DNA from: a virus
Length of the DNA stretch: 50,103 bases
Virus record (IMG/VR): IMGVR_UViG_3300045988_040880
Reading direction: 5' to 3' (one strand)
This document shows positions 3,256 to 39,555 of the stretch, piece after piece. The notes beneath the pieces were generated by a model that saw nothing but the letters and a program-made list of their open reading frames with translations, did not search any database and was not told where the DNA came from. The position numbers were made by a program, and so were the translations under genes. Numbering within the stretch: position 1 is the first letter of the stretch; the number at the start of each line of letters is the position of its first letter.

Positions 3256-3741
3256 ATGGCAATGAAGAGGTCAGGTAAGTTCTACAGAAAGAATGAAGCT
3301 GAGGTGATGGAATCCCTTGGTCTTAAGCCCACAAAGAACTCAGGTTCCGGTTGGGTTGAAAAGGAAGACGGTCAGTCTGATGATGTTATTTGTCAGCTTA
3401 AGTCAACCGATGCTGAGAGTATCAGAATACATAAAAAGGACTTGGATGTGTTAAGCTACAATGCAGCCGTTGCTCACAAACTACCTGTGTTTGCGATTCA
3501 ATTTCTGCAATCCAATGAGGTTTACTTGTTAGTTAAACCGGATATGCTTTGTGAAGCAGCTCAATACATCGAGACAGGAGAATACACCAGTGCAAATGCA
3601 TTCGTAGGTGTAGATTTAAGTGAGCATGAAGATATGGTCGCAATACCAAAGCGAACAATCAAATCAAGCTCAAAAGCACGTGAACAGTTTCAAAGAGAGA
3701 ATGAACGAAAGTTCAAGAAAGAAAAGAGGTCAGCTACATGA
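3256..3741 (+). CDS. Hypothetical protein, possibly a PD-(D/E)XK-type nuclease or resolvase
   Basis: Pattern 'NSGSGW..KEDG......CQLKST' resembles a D...(E/Q)xK nuclease core. The assignment is weak. Confidence 0.3.
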   Translation: MAMKRSGKFYRKNEAEVMESLGLKPTKNSGSGWVEKEDGQSDDVICQLKSTDAESIRIHKKDLDVLSYNAAVAHKLPVFAIQFLQSNEVYLLVKPDMLCEAAQYIETGEYTSANAFVGVDLSEHEDMVAIPKRTIKSSSKAREQFQRENERKFKKEKRSAT

Positions 3742-30391: not shown

Positions 30392-31327
30392 ATGGCAGTA
30401 CTTTCTGTTGAAACAAAGAAAATTCCTGAGTTGGCCGCTACGCTTGACCTTGTTGATAACGATATGATTATCGTTGAGTTGGCGAATGGTGGCACGAGGA
30501 AGATGACGTATGGTGATTTTATCACCACAATCAAAGCTTCTTTGGAATATCCGGATGAAGCAGTGCTTAGTGTGGCAGATGTTGTTGATGTTCAGACAAA
30601 CGATGGAACTAAGATTCCTACAGCTAAGCTCGTATACGATATGCATCAGATTGATGTTGTAATGCGTAGAGAGATGGATTGTTTGAACGGAATCAGAGAA
30701 AAAGGAAATCTCATTAATGTTGATACATTGATGGGTTATGTAAGAGCTGGTGAGCACCATAAGTATGCTATTGGCGATTACTTTGAAGATAACGGTGTTC
30801 AGTGGGCAGTTGTAGCACGTAACTGGTACCCGGCTTGGGCATTTGGTGATGGTGTTGCGAGACCTGAGCATATTGTATGTATGCCTGTAGACTTCTTGGC
30901 AACGTCTTATCAGTTTAACACAACGAATGATAATACCGGTGGTTATGCTGCGAGCTTGATGCCTGCAAATATGGAAACTGAGTACGGTAAGCTTGGTTCC
31001 AATGTTAAGGCTTATTGCAGACAGACTCGTATTTACGAGAATAACAAAGGTGCTTGGGCTGCAGCAATGAGAAGCATGAGACTTCCTACTATTGTTGAGG
31101 TAACCGGAAATCAGGGCTGGGCAAATGAAGGATATTCTGGTGGTGTATGTAGCCAGCTGCCTTTGTGTCAGAACTCTCTTTTCAGGATTCGTTCTACATG
31201 GTATTGGTGTTTAGACCCTTCTTCTGCAAGCTCCGCGTACTTTTGCATTGTCAGCGGCAACGGCTTTGGCTACTACTACGGCGCCTCCAACTCTGGGCGG
31301 GTTCGCCCGCTAATCGTTCTTGCTTAA
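30392..31327 (+). CDS. DGR target protein: tail fibre / receptor-binding protein with C-terminal DUF1566-like (C-type lectin fold) variable domain
   Basis: 'MRLPTIVEV' ... 'YWCLDPSSASSAYFCIVSGNGFGYYYGASNSGRVRPLIV'. The VR occupies codons just before the stop. Confidence 0.8.
   Translation: MAVLSVETKKIPELAATLDLVDNDMIIVELANGGTRKMTYGDFITTIKASLEYPDEAVLSVADVVDVQTNDGTKIPTAKLVYDMHQIDVVMRREMDCLNGIREKGNLINVDTLMGYVRAGEHHKYAIGDYFEDNGVQWAVVARNWYPAWAFGDGVARPEHIVCMPVDFLATSYQFNTTNDNTGGYAASLMPANMETEYGKLGSNVKAYCRQTRIYENNKGAWAAAMRSMRLPTIVEVTGNQGWANEGYSGGVCSQLPLCQNSLFRIRSTWYWCLDPSSASSAYFCIVSGNGFGYYYGASNSGRVRPLIVLA
31230..31309 (+). repeat. DGR variable repeat (VR)
   Basis: 80 nt aligned without gaps to 31983..32062. 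15 differences, all where TR has A. Confidence 0.9.
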
Positions 31328-31336
31328 TCATCAATC

Positions 31337-31356
31337 GTGGCGGCGAAAGCCGACAC
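31337..31356 (+). promoter_or_regulatory. Hairpin with GAAA tetraloop 28 nt downstream of VR
   Basis: GTGGCGGC-GAAA-GCCGACAC, 7 bp with one G/A mismatch. Confidence 0.6.
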
Positions 31357-31381
31357 ATAATGATTCAAAGGAGGAACTAAT

Positions 31382-31948
31382 GTGAGCGTACCAAAATGGA
31401 GAAGGTCTGGGTCTAAGTTGGATGCGTTTTATGAGGCTGTTAAGTTACGACACATTGTAACGCAGATGATAATGCGTTCATACGGAATGAAAACCAAGCA
31501 TAAAAGCTTGATTCCTGATAGACTTAGAGATGAATATCATGACCTTGCAAAATTGTTTGAGAAGATTGATAAGTATCAGACAAAGGTTGAGGAAACTAAA
31601 GTGCTTAGTAAGTATGAGGATTGGATAGTTTCACGAACGAGGAATAATCTCTTTAAGTACACATCAAATTTGGTTGCTCACATCTCAGCCGCTAATGAGA
31701 TTAAGTGTACGCTTGATTTTGAGTTTAAGAAGAGAATTTCACTTGAAGATGAAGCTATAAGTGATATTGCCAATATTAGGCAGGAAGTTCAATTTGTTGA
31801 AGAGTTCTTTGACATTGATTTGAATAAGTACATGGAGTACTCCGAGCAATTGGAGAAAACAAAGAACTATTTGTATCGATGGAAAAAGTCAACTGTGAAT
31901 GAGTATAAGAAGTTCTTAGAAGAACAAAACAACGGAAACGGAGGTTAA
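31382..31948 (+). CDS. avd: Avd-like DGR accessory protein (unusually long, 188 aa)
   Basis: GTG start with an AAAGGAGGA RBS. Basic and helical, lying between VR and TR as in canonical DGRs. Sequence similarity to Avd not verified. Confidence 0.5.
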   Translation: MSVPKWRRSGSKLDAFYEAVKLRHIVTQMIMRSYGMKTKHKSLIPDRLRDEYHDLAKLFEKIDKYQTKVEETKVLSKYEDWIVSRTRNNLFKYTSNLVAHISAANEIKCTLDFEFKKRISLEDEAISDIANIRQEVQFVEEFFDIDLNKYMEYSEQLEKTKNYLYRWKKSTVNEYKKFLEEQNNGNGG

Positions 31949-31982
31949 GGGCCGTTATACCGTGTGTAGGTTATGTGCTGCC

Positions 31983-32062
31983 GCACCACGAACTTTTGCA
32001 ATGTCAACAACAACGGCAATAGCAACAACAACAACGCCTCCAACTCTGGGCGGGTTCGCCCG
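31983..32062 (+). repeat. DGR template repeat (TR)
   Basis: 25 adenines, with AAC/AAT-rich codons in the VR frame (caacaacaacggcaatagcaacaacaacaac). Non-coding position upstream of RT. Confidence 0.9.
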
Positions 32063-32231
32063 ATATCGTATTGATTTGCTAAATGTAGGCAAGAACGACC
32101 GATTAAAATCAAGAACGATAGGAGCACATGACCTTGGCGATTGAGCCTAAAGTGTTTGGTTGATGTGTTTTAGTGCTTGGGCAAAGAAAAGGCTACACTA
32201 AGTAACACTATAAACGGCCAAAATATTTATT

Positions 32232-33395
32232 ATGAGCGACTATGAAAAGATAGCTGATGCTAACAATTTGATGAGGTCAGGTAAGAGATGCATGAAGGAA
32301 ATTTCATGGAAATATTCTACACAAAACTTTTACCTTGACCGAATCAATCGCGTAAGAATCGCAAAAGAACGATTGGAATCGATGGATAGAATGTCTGATG
32401 GTTTTACTGTGTTTAAGATAAATGAACGCGGTAAGATTAGGAATATTCGTTCTGTTCATATAAATGAGCGAATGGTTCAAAAGACTCAATCTGATGTTTC
32501 ATTGATTCCGAACATAAGACCTCGTTTGATTTATGATAACTATGCATCGTTGGAGCAAAGAGGTATATCACAAGCGTTTGATAGACTTAAAGTTCATTTA
32601 CAACGATACTATAGAACTCACGGAACAAATGTTGGTTATATTGCAATGGCCGATTTGCATGCATACTTTGACAGTATAAACCATGATTGTGTGTATGAGC
32701 AATGTAAGAAAGTTCTTGGTCATGACCCGAAAAATTTGTACCTGCTTATGGACTTTGTAGATGCTTTTGGTGATAAGTCACTTGGCTTAGGTAGTCAGGT
32801 ATCTCAAATACTTGCAATCTTTTATCCAAACGAAATTGACCACTTTATCAAAGAGCAATTGAAGATAAAAGGTTATGGTCGATACATGGATGATTTTTAC
32901 ATGATTCATGAGGATAAAGAATATCTTGCTGAGTGCTTACAACTTGTTGAAGGAATGTATGCAGACCTTGGAATCGAGATGAACGTAAATAAGACGAAGA
33001 TATGTCGAATTGATAAAGGCTTCAAATTTTTGAAAGCGAAGATTCATCTCACAGAAACCGGTAAAATAATCATGAGACCTGACCATGCAAGTATTGTTCG
33101 TGAAAGACGAAAACTCAAAAAGTTGAAAGAGAAGCTCGATGCTGGTGAAATTCAGTATAATGAGATTCTTCAGCAATATAAATCATGGAGAGGTTACATG
33201 GAGCAATTTAATTCATACAAAACATTGAAAAGTATGGATGAGTTATTCGATGATTTATTCATAAGACAATGGAGGTGTCAAGAGAATGTCGAACGGAAAC
33301 AACGCAATGACTACGAGTACAGAGTCAAGTTTGGTGAAAAGCAGTATCCTGCTCGCAGACGGCACGGTCTTGAACTTGAATCTGAATGGGACTGA
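32232..33395 (+). CDS. DGR reverse transcriptase
   Basis: 'GRYMDDFYMIH' (YMDD catalytic box), 'LGLGSQVSQILAIFY' (DGR-type GxxxSQ motif), 'ADLHAYFDSINH'. No obvious SD before the ATG. Confidence 0.9.
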   Translation: MSDYEKIADANNLMRSGKRCMKEISWKYSTQNFYLDRINRVRIAKERLESMDRMSDGFTVFKINERGKIRNIRSVHINERMVQKTQSDVSLIPNIRPRLIYDNYASLEQRGISQAFDRLKVHLQRYYRTHGTNVGYIAMADLHAYFDSINHDCVYEQCKKVLGHDPKNLYLLMDFVDAFGDKSLGLGSQVSQILAIFYPNEIDHFIKEQLKIKGYGRYMDDFYMIHEDKEYLAECLQLVEGMYADLGIEMNVNKTKICRIDKGFKFLKAKIHLTETGKIIMRPDHASIVRERRKLKKLKEKLDAGEIQYNEILQQYKSWRGYMEQFNSYKTLKSMDELFDDLFIRQWRCQENVERKQRNDYEYRVKFGEKQYPARRRHGLELESEWD

Positions 33396-33645
33396 GTACG
33401 AGTCCGAAACTCCGATTGCTGATGAAGTTCTCTCCGAGGAGAATCTTTCTAATGTAACAATCGATGATGTGAATAAGGGTAAGATGAAGCTCAATTCAAA
33501 ATATCCTTATAATGGTGGCACTCGTTTCAGTTTGAGAGAAATGACCGAAGATGAAAAAACAATCGAAAGGTTGAACACAGAACTTACTCAGACTCAGGTA
33601 GGTTTGATTGAAGTGTATGAGCTTCTGTTAGGAGGTGAAATCTAA
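33286..33645 (+). CDS. Hypothetical tail-module protein (XkdW-position)
   Basis: ATG 33286 with a GGAGGTG RBS. Overlaps the RT 3' end by 110 nt in another frame. Confidence 0.55.
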   Translation: MSNGNNAMTTSTESSLVKSSILLADGTVLNLNLNGTEYESETPIADEVLSEENLSNVTIDDVNKGKMKLNSKYPYNGGTRFSLREMTEDEKTIERLNTELTQTQVGLIEVYELLLGGEI

Positions 33646-33776
33646 TGGCTGAAGTGTATGCTAGCCTTATTGTTAAAGACATCAAAACTATTGACCAGGT
33701 ACCTGCATCCATTAGAGGTGATGTGAAGCAGGTGCTCATTGATTGGGGCTATCCGGAATTGGCCGGTGATGCCTAA
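33645..33776 (+). CDS. XkdX-like small protein, copy 1 (43 aa)
   Basis: 'MAEVYASLIVKDIKTIDQVPASIRGDVKQVL'. AGGAGGTG RBS and TAATG coupling. Below the ORF-track size cutoff. Confidence 0.65.
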   Translation: MAEVYASLIVKDIKTIDQVPASIRGDVKQVLIDWGYPELAGDA

Positions 33777-33847: not shown

Positions 33848-33973
33848 ATGGCAGAAGTTTATGCTACTCTCATCGTTAAGGGTGTTCGCACCTTTGACCA
33901 GGTACCGGCTGTTATTCAGCCTAAGGTTAAGGCAGTGCTTGAAGCACTTGACCTTGGTGAGCTTGCTCAGTAA
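33848..33973 (+). CDS. XkdX-like small protein, copy 2 (41 aa)
   Basis: 'MAEVYATLIVKGVRTFDQVPAVIQPKVKAVL'. AAAGGAGGA RBS upstream of ATG 33848. Confidence 0.65.
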   Translation: MAEVYATLIVKGVRTFDQVPAVIQPKVKAVLEALDLGELAQ

Positions 33974-33994: not shown

Positions 33995-34303
33995 ATGGAT
34001 AGTCCAATCACTAGAGCTGAGCACGAAGAGTTCAGTAGGAGAATGGAAGAAGAACATAATCGCCAAAATAAGCGAATCGAACTTCTGGAGGAACGAACTG
34101 AGCAATTTACAGATATTGCTATCTCAGTCAAAGAGCTTGCACTTAGTGTAAAGCAAATGGCTGAAACCCAGAAATCACAAGGAGAAAAACTCGAGAAGTT
34201 AGAAGAGCGAGATGGAGAAATGTGGAGAAAAGTGGTTGGGTATATCGTAACAGCAATTGTCGGCATTGTTATCGGCTTCGTGTTCAAGCAAATTGGGATG
34301 TAA
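33995..34303 (+). CDS. XhlA-like membrane protein (coiled coil plus C-terminal TM)
   Basis: Coiled N-terminal region and C-terminal 'VVGYIVTAIVGIVIGFVF'. Follows the XkdX-like genes as in Firmicute phages. Confidence 0.55.
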   Translation: MDSPITRAEHEEFSRRMEEEHNRQNKRIELLEERTEQFTDIAISVKELALSVKQMAETQKSQGEKLEKLEERDGEMWRKVVGYIVTAIVGIVIGFVFKQIGM

Positions 34304-34390
34304 GTTGAATTTTTGATTGATGAGTGTAGGGGTGGTCAGGAGACAGTTCTGGCCGCCCTGAAACTTTTTCAAAAACTTTTCAAAAAGGGG

Positions 34391-34419
34391 TGTACAAATC
34401 AAAAATAATGTGGTATAAT
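34391..34419 (+). promoter_or_regulatory. Promoter P5: TGTACA-N17-TATAAT
   Basis: TGTACA at 34391-34396 and TGGTATAAT ending at 34419. Upstream ttcaaaaacttttcaaaaa. Confidence 0.8.
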
Positions 34420-34474: not shown

Positions 34475-34744
34475 ATGATGCAGAGTTTTGGAAGAGAACG
34501 TAAGGTGTTTGTTGATGTGCACGAGGTTATCCGTTATGAAGATAAATCTGAAAACATCAAAACTGTTGAGTACACTGGTTGTGTAGGATTTGAAGTTGTT
34601 GCTGATGCAAAGAGAGTTGCTGAGATTGAAGCTGAGACCGATGGTTCTTGCATCGATGATTATCATGAGTATTTGATTCTGTATTTTGCAGATGGTGAGA
34701 CTTCTATATTCAGAAATTCTTACGTTGACTTATTCGTAATTTAA
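34475..34744 (+). CDS. Hypothetical protein
   Basis: ORF with an AGGAGGA RBS. Confidence 0.55.
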   Translation: MMQSFGRERKVFVDVHEVIRYEDKSENIKTVEYTGCVGFEVVADAKRVAEIEAETDGSCIDDYHEYLILYFADGETSIFRNSYVDLFVI

Positions 34745-34745
34745 G

Positions 34746-34768
34746 GGTGTACAAGCTTACACCTTTAT
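34746..34768 (+). terminator. Hairpin / terminator candidate overlapping the -35 of P6
   Basis: GGTGTA-CAAGCT-TACACC followed by TTTAT, starting 2 nt after the stop at 34744. Confidence 0.4.
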
Positions 34769-34776
34769 GGTATAAT
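34748..34776 (+). promoter_or_regulatory. Promoter P6: TGTACA-N17-TATAAT
   Basis: TGTACA at 34748-34753 and TGGTATAAT ending at 34776. Confidence 0.7.
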
Positions 34777-34815
34777 AAAATCACAAACAAAACAAATGCT
34801 TAGGAGGGCAAACAA

Positions 34816-35196
34816 ATGAAAAAGGTATGGATTCTTGAAAAGTTCGCAAGCAGTGAGGAAATGGCTAAATCTTTTAATGAAATGAAAGCCATGTTTGAGG
34901 ATGCAAAGAATAACAATAAAGATATGACTGAAGAGCAGATTCATTCTTTAGAACAGTCTCTTGCCAGTTATGAAAAAGTGATGAATGAAAATCCAAATGG
35001 TCGTTGGTATGGCTTTGAAGGCAAAATAATTTATCGTCAGTTTTGTGATATTGCAAAAGCTGCTATTCGCAGAAATCCTGATGGTAAGTTCAGAGTTGTT
35101 GAAGGTGAGATTGCAGATGATGCAAAGTATTGGCCTGGTTATAAGTTCGTCAAAGAGAATGAAGGTGTTCTTCGTTACTTGATGGCAACGAAATAA
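34816..35196 (+). CDS. Hypothetical protein
   Basis: ORF with a TAGGAGGG RBS. Confidence 0.55.
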   Translation: MKKVWILEKFASSEEMAKSFNEMKAMFEDAKNNNKDMTEEQIHSLEQSLASYEKVMNENPNGRWYGFEGKIIYRQFCDIAKAAIRRNPDGKFRVVEGEIADDAKYWPGYKFVKENEGVLRYLMATK

Positions 35197-35274
35197 GCTA
35201 CCCTGATGAGTCGTTGAGAATTACGACGAAAGGTTCCGCAAGGATTAAATGGACTAATGTCCAGCCTCGGTAGT
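35197..35274 (+). ncRNA. Hammerhead self-cleaving ribozyme, type I topology (predicted cleavage after C at 35268)
   Basis: GCUACC-CUGAUGA-GUCGU(loop)ACGAC-GAA-AGGUU...AGCCU-C|GGUAGU. All invariant core nucleotides and three complementary stems were read directly. Confidence 0.75.
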
Positions 35275-35309
35275 ATGCAGCTACCAAATTAACAAAGGAG
35301 GACATAGGT

Positions 35310-35825
35310 ATGTCAAGAGAAAATCTGCAGAAGAAAACCTGTAAAGAGCTCAGAGAGCTTGCCAAGGAATTGAACATCTCCGGTAGATGGGATATGACCA
35401 AGGACCAATTGATTGATGCAATCTTAGGAGCGGAAGTGGTTGAGAATACCAATGAATCTGAAAGTGCTAAAGACGAATGTAAGGTTGACAATCAGGAAAA
35501 TGTCGTAGAGGTGGAAGATAAAGTTGAGAAAGAATCCGCCAACGTCGATGTGGATATGGCTCAGAAGATGCCGTACATTGAGAACATCGAAATCGGTACT
35601 TTGGTTGCTTTCCGTCTTTCCAATGGTAAGGTAAAATCTGCTAAGGTCACTCGTAAGTCTACCAAAAATCGTAAGCTCAAGCTTGAGACCGATTATGGTG
35701 CAGAATACATCGTATCGTTTGACGATATTGTGTGGGTAAGGACTGGTAAGCGTTGGCCTCGTGGAGTTTACAAACTGTTGAAAGGACTGGTGGATGATAA
35801 TGGCAAAGAGGAACAGAAAGGCTAA
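35310..35825 (+). CDS. Protein with N-terminal Rho_N/HeH-like domain
   Basis: 'KTCKELRELAKELNISGRWDMTKDQLIDAI', paralogous to the N-terminus of CDS 9848. AAAGGAGGA RBS. Confidence 0.55.
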   Translation: MSRENLQKKTCKELRELAKELNISGRWDMTKDQLIDAILGAEVVENTNESESAKDECKVDNQENVVEVEDKVEKESANVDVDMAQKMPYIENIEIGTLVAFRLSNGKVKSAKVTRKSTKNRKLKLETDYGAEYIVSFDDIVWVRTGKRWPRGVYKLLKGLVDDNGKEEQKG

Positions 35826-36357
35826 GCTCACTGCAACTGAGTGTAGACAATCTGTTCGTAAGTTCTTTGAAAAACAGGCAAGATTCAAACAGGTGCAATC
35901 ACAGTTCAATGAATTGAAAGCACAGTTCAACAGTGATATGGAGGACTATTTTGAGTGTGAAGGCATTGACAAGTCAATGACATTCTCGTTCGATGGGTTT
36001 GTTGAAGGTGACTTGGTTGTCAATCGAATCCAGAAATCAAGCGTTGAGTTTGACCCTGATAAGCTTGAAAAAGCATTAGGTAAAAGCTTAGCAAAGCAAG
36101 TGATTATCAAACGTTACGAAGTCACTGATATGGACGCGTTGATTGCTTACTTGAAAGAATGTGATGTGGACCCTAAAATCTTTAAGTCTTTCCTGGCTGT
36201 ATCTAAATCGGTTGATACTCAGGAACTTGATAGACTGGAAGAGATTGGTAAGGTAACTACAGAACAGGTTCAAGGTTGCTACACAATAAAACGTCAGAAT
36301 CCCTACTTCACTGTTGGTGTGAAGCGAGGGCATGATGATGGAGAACAAAAATGGTGA
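35794..36357 (+). CDS. Hypothetical protein (start 35794 or 35800)
   Basis: ORF in the replication module. No family recognised. Confidence 0.5.
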   Translation: MIMAKRNRKAKLTATECRQSVRKFFEKQARFKQVQSQFNELKAQFNSDMEDYFECEGIDKSMTFSFDGFVEGDLVVNRIQKSSVEFDPDKLEKALGKSLAKQVIIKRYEVTDMDALIAYLKECDVDPKIFKSFLAVSKSVDTQELDRLEEIGKVTTEQVQGCYTIKRQNPYFTVGVKRGHDDGEQKW

Positions 36358-37327
36358 GGCGTTAGCCAAAGTATTATGGTATTATAACCTGATACCGGAC
36401 GTTGCATCATTAAGTCAGAAAATTGTCTGTCCTTTTCATGATGATGTGAATCCAAGTATGATAGTGAATTTTGAAGATGGTTCATGGTTCTGCTTCGGAT
36501 GTAATTTGACTGGTGATGCAAAGAAGTTTGTACAGCTCATGGAATCCAAACACAATGGATTAAATGACTTGCAGGCTTATCAAAAATATCTTCGTATTCT
36601 GAAATCCGATAAGTGTAGTAATATTAAATTGGATAGGTCTCTGGTAAAACAGAAACCACTCCAGAAGGACCTTTATAATGAGGCCTATGATTATTACCAC
36701 GGATTAAGAAAAGTCAACTGGAGGGATTCTGATGAACCTGAGGTGGTGGCCGCAAAAGAGTACATGACCAAGAGAGGATTCAGTCCTGAAACTCTACATA
36801 AGTGTAAGGCAAAGGTTACATATAATCGAAGTTACGGAATAATCTTCCCGATGTTGGACAATGGAAAGTTCAAAGGTTGGGTATGTCGTACGATGCTTAA
36901 GTTTATTGAAGAAAAACGAAAGTATTTGTACAATGAAGGATTTAGCCGAGCAACGACTTTGGTTGGTAACTATGGAGCCAAGGACTATGTGTTTGTGGTT
37001 GAGGGTTACATGGACCGATTGAAGTTTGTACAGTTTGGTGAAGACAATGTGGTTGCTATTTTAGGTTGGAAGATGTCGCCTCAGCAAATTCAAAAGCTGA
37101 AAGACAAAGGAATCACAAAGGTGATAAGTGCATTGGATAACGATGAATGTGGTCGTAAAGGAACTGAGTTTCTGAAGAAGCATTTCAAAGTGACGAGGTT
37201 CAAGTATCTTAAGGGTGTTAAAGACCCGGGTGATATGACTCAGGAATCGTTTGACAAGATGTTTAGAAAAACAATGAGTGAATTCAAAAGAAATCAAGGA
37301 GGAAACCAAAATGGGTTTAGTCGATAA
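36332..37327 (+). CDS. dnaG: DNA primase (CHC2 zinc finger plus Toprim)
   Basis: 'CPFHDDVNPSMIVNFEDGSWFCFGC'. Toprim 'VVEGYMD' and 'SALDNDECGRKG'. Confidence 0.8.
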   Translation: MMMENKNGEALAKVLWYYNLIPDVASLSQKIVCPFHDDVNPSMIVNFEDGSWFCFGCNLTGDAKKFVQLMESKHNGLNDLQAYQKYLRILKSDKCSNIKLDRSLVKQKPLQKDLYNEAYDYYHGLRKVNWRDSDEPEVVAAKEYMTKRGFSPETLHKCKAKVTYNRSYGIIFPMLDNGKFKGWVCRTMLKFIEEKRKYLYNEGFSRATTLVGNYGAKDYVFVVEGYMDRLKFVQFGEDNVVAILGWKMSPQQIQKLKDKGITKVISALDNDECGRKGTEFLKKHFKVTRFKYLKGVKDPGDMTQESFDKMFRKTMSEFKRNQGGNQNGFSR

Positions 37328-39047: not shown

Positions 39048-39555
39048 AGAATCCATAATGAGTGAGTACCCACTCAAGAAGATAATTCGATACAATCATC
39101 GTAGTCGTCTTCAGGATGAAAGTGTTGCTGAACATACATGCTTTGTATCTTTGTTCTGTTTGAAGATTATGGCTCAGCTTAATCTTACTCATGAACAGGA
39201 ACGACAGGTTCTGATTCTTGCTGCATTGCATGATACATGTGAGAGTCGTACATCTGATATTCCTCATGATGTGAAAGCAAACTACCCCGAGATGCAGGCA
39301 ATCCTTGAAAAGATTGAGCATGACTACTACGAAGAAAATTGGAAAACTTATCTCGGAGATGTGTACAAACCCGAACCGATAGTGTATAATATACTTAAGT
39401 TGGCAGATGCCTACAGTGTATACCAGTGGTGCTTGAATGAAAAAGCACTTGGTAATTCTTCTGATTGCATTACCGAAATCTATATTGAGTGTAGGAATCG
39501 TCTTAAGAAGTACATTGGTATTATCAACGAAATAATTGAGAAGGAGGCCAAATAA
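39028..39555 (+). CDS. HD-domain phosphohydrolase (YfbR-like 5'-deoxynucleotidase); start uncertain (39004, 39028 or 39058)
   Basis: 'ESVAEHTCFVS' and 'LAALHDTCESRTSDIPHD'. Confidence 0.65.
   Translation: MLELLSKESIMSEYPLKKIIRYNHRSRLQDESVAEHTCFVSLFCLKIMAQLNLTHEQERQVLILAALHDTCESRTSDIPHDVKANYPEMQAILEKIEHDYYEENWKTYLGDVYKPEPIVYNILKLADAYSVYQWCLNEKALGNSSDCITEIYIECRNRLKKYIGIINEIIEKEAK

Follow-up and report, generated by a model that had tools for sequence, protein, structure and literature searches.

A type I hammerhead ribozyme, followed by a hairpin that re-uses one of its strands, lies between a variable early gene and a conserved block of replication genes in the viral genome record IMGVR_UViG_3300045988_040880 (50,103 nucleotides, referred to here in its entirety as the window). 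The complete motif occupies positions 35197-35274 of the + strand, 78 bases directly 3' of the coding sequence (CDS) 34816-35196, in a region where all genes are on the + strand. Judged by its sequence and by the conservation described below, the element is a genuine type I hammerhead and a new example of a known phage element, and its predicted self-cleavage is very likely. We also consider it quite probable that the ribozyme cuts an early transcript and that the refolded hairpin caps the mRNA of the replication operon; the conserved features that surround the catalytic motif suggest a fixed, capped RNA start for the downstream replication genes.

The hammerhead core is complete (C3-A9, G12-A14 and a base other than G at position 17), with three helices in the correct order around it and the required closing pairs present (Table 1). 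The arrangement is that of the type I topology: loops close stems II and III, stem I is left open, and the predicted cut falls at the motif's 3' end. The initial annotation had placed the core, stems I to III, C17 and two mini-hairpins base by base, and all of these coordinates match the sequence; its identification of a type I hammerhead also stands, with the canonical core and three helices kept by compensatory changes both in relatives recruited through neighboring proteins and in a broader class. We scanned both strands of the window with a descriptor that demanded a stem I of at least 4 bp, CUGANGA, a stem II of at least 4 bp, GAA, a stem III of at least 4 bp opened by an A-U pair, and a non-G base at position 17, and 35197-35274 was the sole matching site. 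In 300 dinucleotide-preserving shuffles this descriptor found 0.003 sites per ~50-kb window, none of them at the observed stem lengths. No second ribozyme was found in the window, either by the descriptor scan or by the model R1 described below, run with filters off. The heptamer CTGATGA occurs 30 times in the window, and the rejection of other CUGAUGA sites in the initial annotation extends to all of the remaining 29, none of which fits the hammerhead fold. This heptamer is over-represented (30 copies vs 12.6 expected, 27 of the 30 on the + strand), probably as a codon-usage effect in coding sequence that is unrelated to ribozymes. Two minus-strand candidates over the same region were set aside: a match to ssnA at 35253-35290 (17.1 bits vs a cut-off of 37.3), which we took as chance, and an open reading frame (ORF) at 35198-35491, which we dismissed as a gene because it overlaps a conserved + strand gene.

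The element is conserved in phages that share the neighboring genes. Homologues of the upstream protein (126 aa) are encoded at 7 loci in IMG/VR and those of the downstream protein (171 aa) at 23, and these relatives were scanned for CUGANGA plus stem II only. Of the 23 contigs with the 171-aa protein (58-99% identity), only L010 is without the motif just 5' of its gene; this contig begins 29 bases before the gene and is missing the upstream region. Altogether, more than 25 loci in related phages have the ribozyme 5' of this Rho_N-domain gene. Within this clade stem I occurs as GCUACC/GGUAGU, GUCACC/GGUGGC, AUCACC/GGUGAU and GCUGCC/GGUGGC, and stem II as GUCGU/ACGAC or GUCUU/AAGAC, with compensation of a G-C by a U-A pair at alignment pair 20/31. 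In alignment A2, which comprises the clade with the stem III interiors cut out, 99% of cells are paired and 8 of the 16 pairs have changed on both sides (15-57% paired in slid controls); for stem I alone the figures are 98%, with both-side changes in three of the six pairs. Among the 21 distinct clade variants, position 17 is occupied by C, U or A, and G does not occur there. Loci L026-L030 (at ~2859-2921) carry the core variant CCGAUGA (U4C) and a stem II of GUAUU/AAUAC, with all helices intact and scores of 68-69 bits under R1; the activity of this variant is uncertain.

Stem III is the most changeable part of the element, ranging in the clade from a 16-nt hairpin (ACCGGC-AUAA-GCCGGU) to branched forms of 74-123 nt. 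The largest insertions are those of L001, L023, L024 and L025, which have the stem III layout of the window with an invariant AUUAAAU junction and covarying inner hairpins (P3b as GUACG/CGUAC or GCAUG/CAUGC, P3a as CCAC/GUGG or UCAC/GUGA). In L153 (at 4767) and L176 (at 3755), an 18-nt ACCAGCC-GAAA-GGCUGGU hairpin stands in place of the 37-nt branched stem III of the window; the flanking proteins are 99-100% identical to those of the window, and stems I and II and the downstream copy of the stem I 5' strand are unchanged. The same four loci with the longest stem III have a tRNA-Arg(ACG) with an encoded CCA directly 5' of the hammerhead (3699-3774 in L001; ~2724-2842 in L023-L025), in the order tRNA, CCA, AAA, stem I. 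We rejected the idea that the hammerhead makes the 3' end of this tRNA, because type I cleavage takes place at the 3' end of the ribozyme itself, a long way from the tRNA; no tRNA is present in the window. A GC-rich distant relative, L004, has two elements (2458-2522 and 3375-3439), a type II hammerhead that passes the Rfam threshold (42.9 bits vs 37) and a type I-like element directly after a homologue of the 126-aa gene, which has one extra core base (CUGAAUGA) and scores 23.5 bits with R1.

To survey a wider range of sequences, we used a search pattern derived from the window in which the core, the stem II ends and loop II are the only specified parts. The pattern matches at least 120 viral contigs and at least 70 loci in genomes and metagenome-assembled genomes (MAGs), mostly from gut Clostridia, with further matches in Melainabacteria, Patescibacteria, Elusimicrobia and Bacteroidales bins. 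The class therefore numbers more than 190 viral and MAG loci, as a lower bound, with a near-invariant stem II and loop II. Among the 164 distinct matches with complete flanks that were listed, 82% have stems I and III in the hammerhead register, compared to 2.0% with shuffled flanks; when at least 5 bp per stem are required, the figures are 74% and 0.3%. An alignment of 39 members from outside the clade of the window (A1) is 95.7% paired, with compensatory changes in 13 of 17 pairs. The model R1 built from A1 aligns end to end with window positions 35194-35274 at 56.5 bits (E = 5e-14), a score that is partly circular, the class having been recruited with the core, stem II and loop II of the window, and in which the independent information comes from stems I and III, position 17 and the 5' AA; elsewhere in the window R1 gives at most 11.8 bits.

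Two further features of the class concern the bases that precede stem I. In a set of 70 non-redundant members, 90% have A at position -2 and 96% have A at position -1 (background ~40%), and type III members with the same loop II have As at the equivalent place, the 3' end of loop I. The AA probably contacts loop II, as these patterns suggest for a class in which loop II was itself fixed by the search pattern. Moreover, stem I coincides with the end of an ORF of 50 or more codons in 49 of the 70 members (8.5% when positions are random), with no gap between stop codon and stem I in 21 of them, and the next start codon typically follows 30-46 nt past the cut. Most of the remaining pattern matches are hammerheads of type III in which stem II and loop II are unchanged and loop I is conserved, for example CCACCAAA (L096, L112, L148, L177, L101, L062, L047, L190, L187, and L219, none of them with a tRNA next to it). 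For a subgroup reading 'CCACCAAAGCAC CUGAUGA', which has no type I parse, a link to tRNAs was considered and rejected: ARAGORN found no adjacent tRNA, and these are type III hammerheads. Another subgroup, from Patescibacteria and Berkelbacteria MAGs (L156, L189, L198, L212, and L214), reads AAGUGUU-CUGAUGA-GUCGU...ACGAC-GAAAGGG with ...CCCUCAACA just before it; it has no simple type I parse and is probably also type III.

Covariance models from Rfam, to which the initial annotation had looked for confirmation, did not supply it. At the gathering threshold, a database criterion and not a biochemical definition, Rfam 15 (hammerhead families RF00163, RF00008, RF02275-7, and RF03152) gave no match of any kind in the window and, in 18 related loci, no hammerhead match for this motif. 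The best match over 35100-35400 at relaxed threshold is Hammerhead_3 with 19.4 bits against a cut-off of 48.5, in an alignment that takes the wrong circular permutation and builds a spurious stem out of coding sequence from upstream. Close relatives, in which stem III is plain, fare no better (21.7 vs 48.5 bits with Hammerhead_3 in L009; 21.5 vs 56.3 bits with RAGATH-1-hammerhead). Since the negative result holds for the whole subclass, we read it as a gap in the models and not as a false motif; current Rfam thresholds miss an entire abundant subclass of phage type I hammerheads. The core sequence of the window element is common to Hammerhead_1 (RF00163), Hammerhead_3 (RF00008) and RAGATH-1-hammerhead (RF03152), its loop II resembles the Hammerhead_3 consensus UGAAAU, and the order of its elements is the type I order of RAGATH-1-hammerhead, whose upstream hairpin is absent here. 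A blastn search of 34600-36000 against the INPHARED collection of GenBank phages gave no match.

The second conserved component of the locus is a decoy, a further copy of the stem I 5' strand downstream of the cut. The second GCUACC and the alternative hairpin described in the initial annotation are real: each of the 21 distinct clade variants has, downstream of stem I, a copy of its 5' strand with which the 3' strand could pair instead, and the arms covary with that 3' strand through its four variants (GGUAGU, GGUGGC, GGUGGU, and GGUGAU). The first paired base of the clade hairpins is base 1 or 2 of the 3' product, their energies are predicted at -4.9 to -9.6 kcal/mol, and on alignment A2 the decoy helix is 93.9% paired, with two pairs changed on both sides (19-65% in slid controls). 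Among 79 distinct 3' strands from members outside the clade, 46.8% can pair again downstream at four or more positions. When each strand was set against the downstream sequence of another member, the value was 25.1 +/- 4.3%, and none of 500 permutations reached 46.8%; the mean folding energy is -3.54 kcal/mol, compared to -2.01 kcal/mol when permuted.

Predicted folding energies place the two structures in close competition. For an RNA that stops at 35279, the fold of lowest energy is exactly the hammerhead (-23.6 kcal/mol), and in the full precursor the active fold (-22.0 kcal/mol) and the decoy fold (-23.3 kcal/mol) are nearly equal, in agreement with the competition with stem I that had been proposed from the sequence. 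The 3' product is predicted to fold with the hairpin from its first base. This folding order fits co-transcriptional cleavage and subsequent refolding, and a decoy that limits cleavage would also be compatible with it.

The genomic setting gives the element a defined position in an early transcript. A promoter-like motif occurs in the window as 8 exact and 2 near copies, all on the + strand, where 0.54 are expected (at 753, 4439, 9749, 17458, 34391, 34748, 39362, 41398, 44355, and 49785); its -35-like element, TGTACA, is unusual. The sixth copy, which is consistent with the promoter P6 of the initial annotation, is likely the start of the ribozyme-bearing transcript. With this copy upstream and the next one downstream at 39362, the ribozyme lies ~415 nt into the early transcript, 3' of the first gene of that transcript. 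In phages with 94-98% identity to the window on either flank, similarity is lost over the upstream gene: the break is at 34467 in L162, 34478 in L153 and 34822 (just after the start codon) in L176, and similarity resumes at 35192, 35193 and 35192, respectively, as it does at 35194 in L008 and 35192 in L012. The right-hand break, at 35192-35194, falls at the stop codon adjoining the ribozyme. Across ~33 loci, the ORFs upstream of the ribozyme belong to at least 10 unrelated families of small proteins without assigned function, and the downstream gene and its leader (hairpin, AAAUUA, and GGAGGACAUAGGUAUG) are constant. From these breaks and the constancy of the downstream side, it follows that the ribozyme marks the right edge of a swappable cargo slot; on these comparisons the upstream gene is a swappable cassette, and stem III is swappable as well. 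The 126-aa protein of the window has no PHROG match and, in Pfam, only a sub-threshold match to RIC3 (17.1 bits vs a cut-off of 28.9).

Table 1. Features of the ribozyme locus and its surroundings in the window.
Feature	Position	Strand	Description
Reverse transcriptase	32232-33395	+	RVT_1, phrog_1423
Holin-like gene	33995-34303	+	
Terminator-like hairpin	34329-34359		
Promoter motif copy	34391-34419	+	
Promoter-like site	34748-34776	+	TGTACAA-N13-TGGTATAAT, extended -10; sixth copy, 40 nt upstream of CDS 34816
Upstream CDS	34816..35196	+	126 aa; cargo gene; homologues 44-64% identical
UAA stop codon	35194-35196	+	Its two As are the conserved AA immediately 5' of stem I
Stem I, 5' strand	35197-35202	+	GCUACC; pairs with 35269-35274
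Catalytic core C3 U4 G5 A6 U7 G8 A9	35203-35209	+	CUGAUGA
Stem II	35210-35214 with 35223-35227	+	GUCGU/ACGAC; 5 bp, G10.1-C11.1 closing pair
Loop II	within 35210-35227	+	UGAGAAUU; near-invariant module with stem II across the class
Core G12 A13 A14	35228-35230	+	
Stem III, P3	35231-35235 with 35263-35267	+	AGGUU/AGCCU; 5 bp, opens with A15.1-U16.1, one U-G pair
Stem III, P3a	35236-35243	+	CC-GCAA-GG; inner hairpin of branched stem III
Stem III junction	35244-35250	+	AUUAAAU
Stem III, P3b	35251-35262	+	GGAC-UAAU-GUCC; inner hairpin of branched stem III
C17	35268	+	Predicted scissile bond 35268/35269
Stem I, 3' strand	35269-35274	+	GGUAGU; 6 bp, outermost pair G-U; common to the alternative hairpin
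Alternative hairpin	35269-35285	+	GGUAGU-AUGCA-GCUACC; begins at first base of the 3' product; predicted -7.9 kcal/mol
Decoy strand	35280-35285	+	Second GCUACC; 11 nt before GGAGG
Shine-Dalgarno sequence	35297-35301	+	GGAGG, within the conserved leader GGAGGACAUAGGUAUG
Downstream CDS	35310..35825	+	171 aa, Rho_N (SAP-like) domain; first gene of the conserved replication block
Replication block after the 171-aa gene	primase 36332-37327	+	187-aa ORF, primase, SSB-like protein

We propose that an RNA started at 34748-34776 would fold into the hammerhead once GGUAGU (35269-35274) emerges, with the conserved AA of the upstream stop codon probably touching loop II, and would then cut itself between C35268 and G35269. 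The 5' product would be the mRNA of the variable cargo gene, with the compact ribozyme at its end and a 2',3'-cyclic phosphate, and the 3' product would start with a 5'-OH and refold immediately into the hairpin 35269-35285 by means of the decoy GCUACC. Re-ligation would be blocked because refolding takes away the 3' strand of stem I, and the replication-gene mRNA, having no single-stranded 5' end, would be protected from 5'-end-dependent decay. The net effect would be the same capped 5' end for the replication operon whatever cargo gene lies upstream, and such a fixed end makes sense beside a variable cargo slot. As to the hairpin itself, we incline by a slight degree to the view that it serves 5'-end protection or a block to re-ligation. 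Stem-loops at the 5' end stabilize mRNAs, which is the basis for expecting resistance in an end that is paired from its first base. In Firmicutes, RNase J1 attacks the 5'-OH end left by the glmS ribozyme, as known from Bacillus (Collins et al., 2007, as summarized in PMC3328962). Like the cleavage predicted for the window element, that of glmS produces a downstream mRNA with a 5'-OH in a host of the Firmicute type; glmS differs in that its exposed 5'-OH marks the mRNA for degradation, whereas the 5' end in the window is predicted to be paired and should, on this model, have the opposite effect.

The host is suggested by MAG binning of contigs that are nearly identical to the window. Three phage-sized contigs, L162 (JAZSCN010000013.1, 50,130 bp), L153 (49,732 bp) and L166 (49,025 bp), belong to MAG bins assigned to Oscillospiraceae and Clostridia, obtained from the guts of animals and humans, which suggests a Clostridia host for the window phage.

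Several points weigh against this account of a cut followed by capping. In addition to the partial circularity of the R1 score, no Rfam hammerhead model reaches its gathering score in the window or its close relatives. Stem I has only 6 bp and offers no obvious loop or bulge as a partner for loop II, so that fast cleavage at cellular Mg2+ is not assured. Approximately half of the class members are without the decoy hairpin, which is therefore not required for the general function of the class, and in the uncleaved RNA the predicted energies give the decoy hairpin a slight advantage in stability over stem I, so that it could inhibit cleavage rather than follow it. Furthermore, the host is inferred only from phage-sized contigs in Clostridia and Oscillospiraceae MAGs, and the RNase J argument therefore rests on an uncertain host.

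The stability of the decoy fold bears directly on a different reading, in which the hammerhead is active and the downstream GCUACC acts as an off-switch against stem I in the uncleaved RNA, limiting or regulating cleavage; in one variant, the balance could depend on translation of the upstream gene, stem I and the core being masked by a ribosome that terminates at the UAA, which would leave GGUAGU free for the decoy. The predicted energies of the precursor are in its favor, as are the minimum-energy folds of relatives, which have the decoy hairpin instead of stem I, and the adjacency of stop codons to stem I beyond chance. Against it, the decoy follows the completed stem I by just 6-11 nt of transcription, and the truncated RNA adopts the hammerhead fold. 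The close fit of the stops is also explained by the conserved AA together with tight gene packing, and in L001 and L023-L025, where a tRNA and not a stop codon precedes AAA-stem I, there is no terminating ribosome and the decoy is kept nonetheless. We regard an off-switch as unlikely.

The conserved patch could also have been maintained for reasons of recombination, with the ribozyme mainly a junction or hitch-hiking module whose 29-nt core, stem II and loop II provide homology for cassette exchange, and with the direct repeat GCUACC...GCUACC as an insertion footprint in place of a functional hairpin. The homology of near-identical phages breaking exactly at the 5' edge of the ribozyme would be expected from such a module, and the unrelated upstream genes across loci, the exchange of stem III between phages with 99-100% identical flanking proteins and the occurrence of the same stem II and loop II in Clostridia, Melainabacteria, Patescibacteria, Bacteroidales and Elusimicrobia bins point the same way. 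Yet the two copies differ in relatives and both stay complementary to the stem I 3' strand (for example GUCACC and GCUACC, which both pair with GGUGGC through different G-U pairs), and selection for pairing is therefore favored over a duplication scar; the core also stays canonical, with position 17 never G, and a role in exchange is compatible with ribozyme function. That the element is chiefly such a module seems to us distinctly unlikely. A chance or decayed motif without catalytic activity is extremely improbable: the lack of any Rfam match above threshold and the core variants of relatives (U4C in L026-L030, a 1-nt insertion in L004) could be read in this way, but such sites are expected at 0.003 per window, and the motif is conserved, with compensatory changes, at more than 25 syntenic loci as well as in a class that has over 190. 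Cleavage of the early transcript followed by refolding of the hairpin thus remains the reading that we prefer.

Hammerheads are common in phages and prophages and their biological role has been described as open (PMC6155905, PMC6765202). In prophages they lie beside genes, and a part in processing long phage transcripts has been suggested for them (PMC3088659, PMC6765202), so that splitting of the early transcript, as considered here, is a role already put forward. The window element shares with the prokaryotic and phage hammerheads described previously (Perreault et al., 2011, PMC3088659; PMC6155905, PMC6765202) a canonical three-helix core and an intergenic position in phage or prophage DNA beside small genes of unknown function, and the related phages, as in the known cases, also have several hammerheads. 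The present subclass differs from these in being of type I with a short, open stem I that has no loop I, in its near-invariant GUCUU-UGAAAAUU-AAGAC, in the conserved AA before stem I and in the frequent decoy copy of the stem I 5' strand just downstream. In the literature examined we found no description of the near-invariant stem II and loop II, the AA or its proposed contact, the decoy hairpin or the cassette boundary, a prior description being possible.

In its layout, the locus fits an insulator of the kind represented by RiboJ, in which the hammerhead of the tobacco ringspot virus satellite RNA (sTRSV) and a 23-nt hairpin precede the ribosome-binding site and mRNA and protein levels are raised (PMC6206723). 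Both have the order ribozyme, hairpin, ribosome-binding site, and cleavage in the window would, as in RiboJ, give a fixed downstream 5' end whatever lies upstream and a terminal hairpin on the mRNA; the variable upstream cassette of the window fits such a device as well. RiboJ is of type III and leaves most of the ribozyme on the downstream RNA, whereas here almost all of it would stay on the upstream RNA, and the RiboJ hairpin is independent of stem I, whereas the window hairpin re-uses the stem I 3' strand. By analogy, the window element may be regarded as a natural counterpart of RiboJ, the likeness being functional only and not ancestral. Theta ribozymes, which are similar to that of hepatitis delta virus, are small ribozymes just 3' of phage tRNAs (PMC10879173), a position similar to that of the hammerhead in L001 and L023-L025; the type I hammerhead in these loci cuts more than 100 nt beyond the tRNA and therefore cannot make the mature tRNA 3' end.

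Tentatively, and with somewhat more doubt than confidence, we extend the proposal to a large class of gut-phage type I hammerheads, where a ribozyme abutting the stop codon of a swappable cargo gene, the AA of that codon serving also as the loop II contact, and a decoy a few bases past the cut would form a natural insulator, a design that may be new. If this design were true, the cut would be irreversible and the 5'-OH of the downstream operon mRNA hidden, at a hot spot of cassette exchange; it would provide a concrete, testable answer to the function of phage hammerheads, and coupling between cleavage and translation termination would be possible. The window locus is a clean test case, with a single ribozyme in a ~50-kb phage genome, 415 nt downstream of a recognizable promoter and exactly between a hypervariable cargo gene and a conserved replication operon, and its conserved refolding hairpin gives specific predictions for mutants.

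Upstream of the ribozyme locus, the window also contains a diversity-generating retroelement (30392-33395), with a variable repeat (31230-31312) at the 3' end of the ORF 30392-31327 and a template repeat (31983-32065) that is 81% identical to it, many of the differences falling at template As, followed by the reverse transcriptase listed in Table 1. Between this retroelement and the holin-like gene, a 62-nt direct repeat (33645-33706 and 33848-33909, 73% identical) is found at the starts of two small neighboring ORFs, which are likely paralogous small genes.

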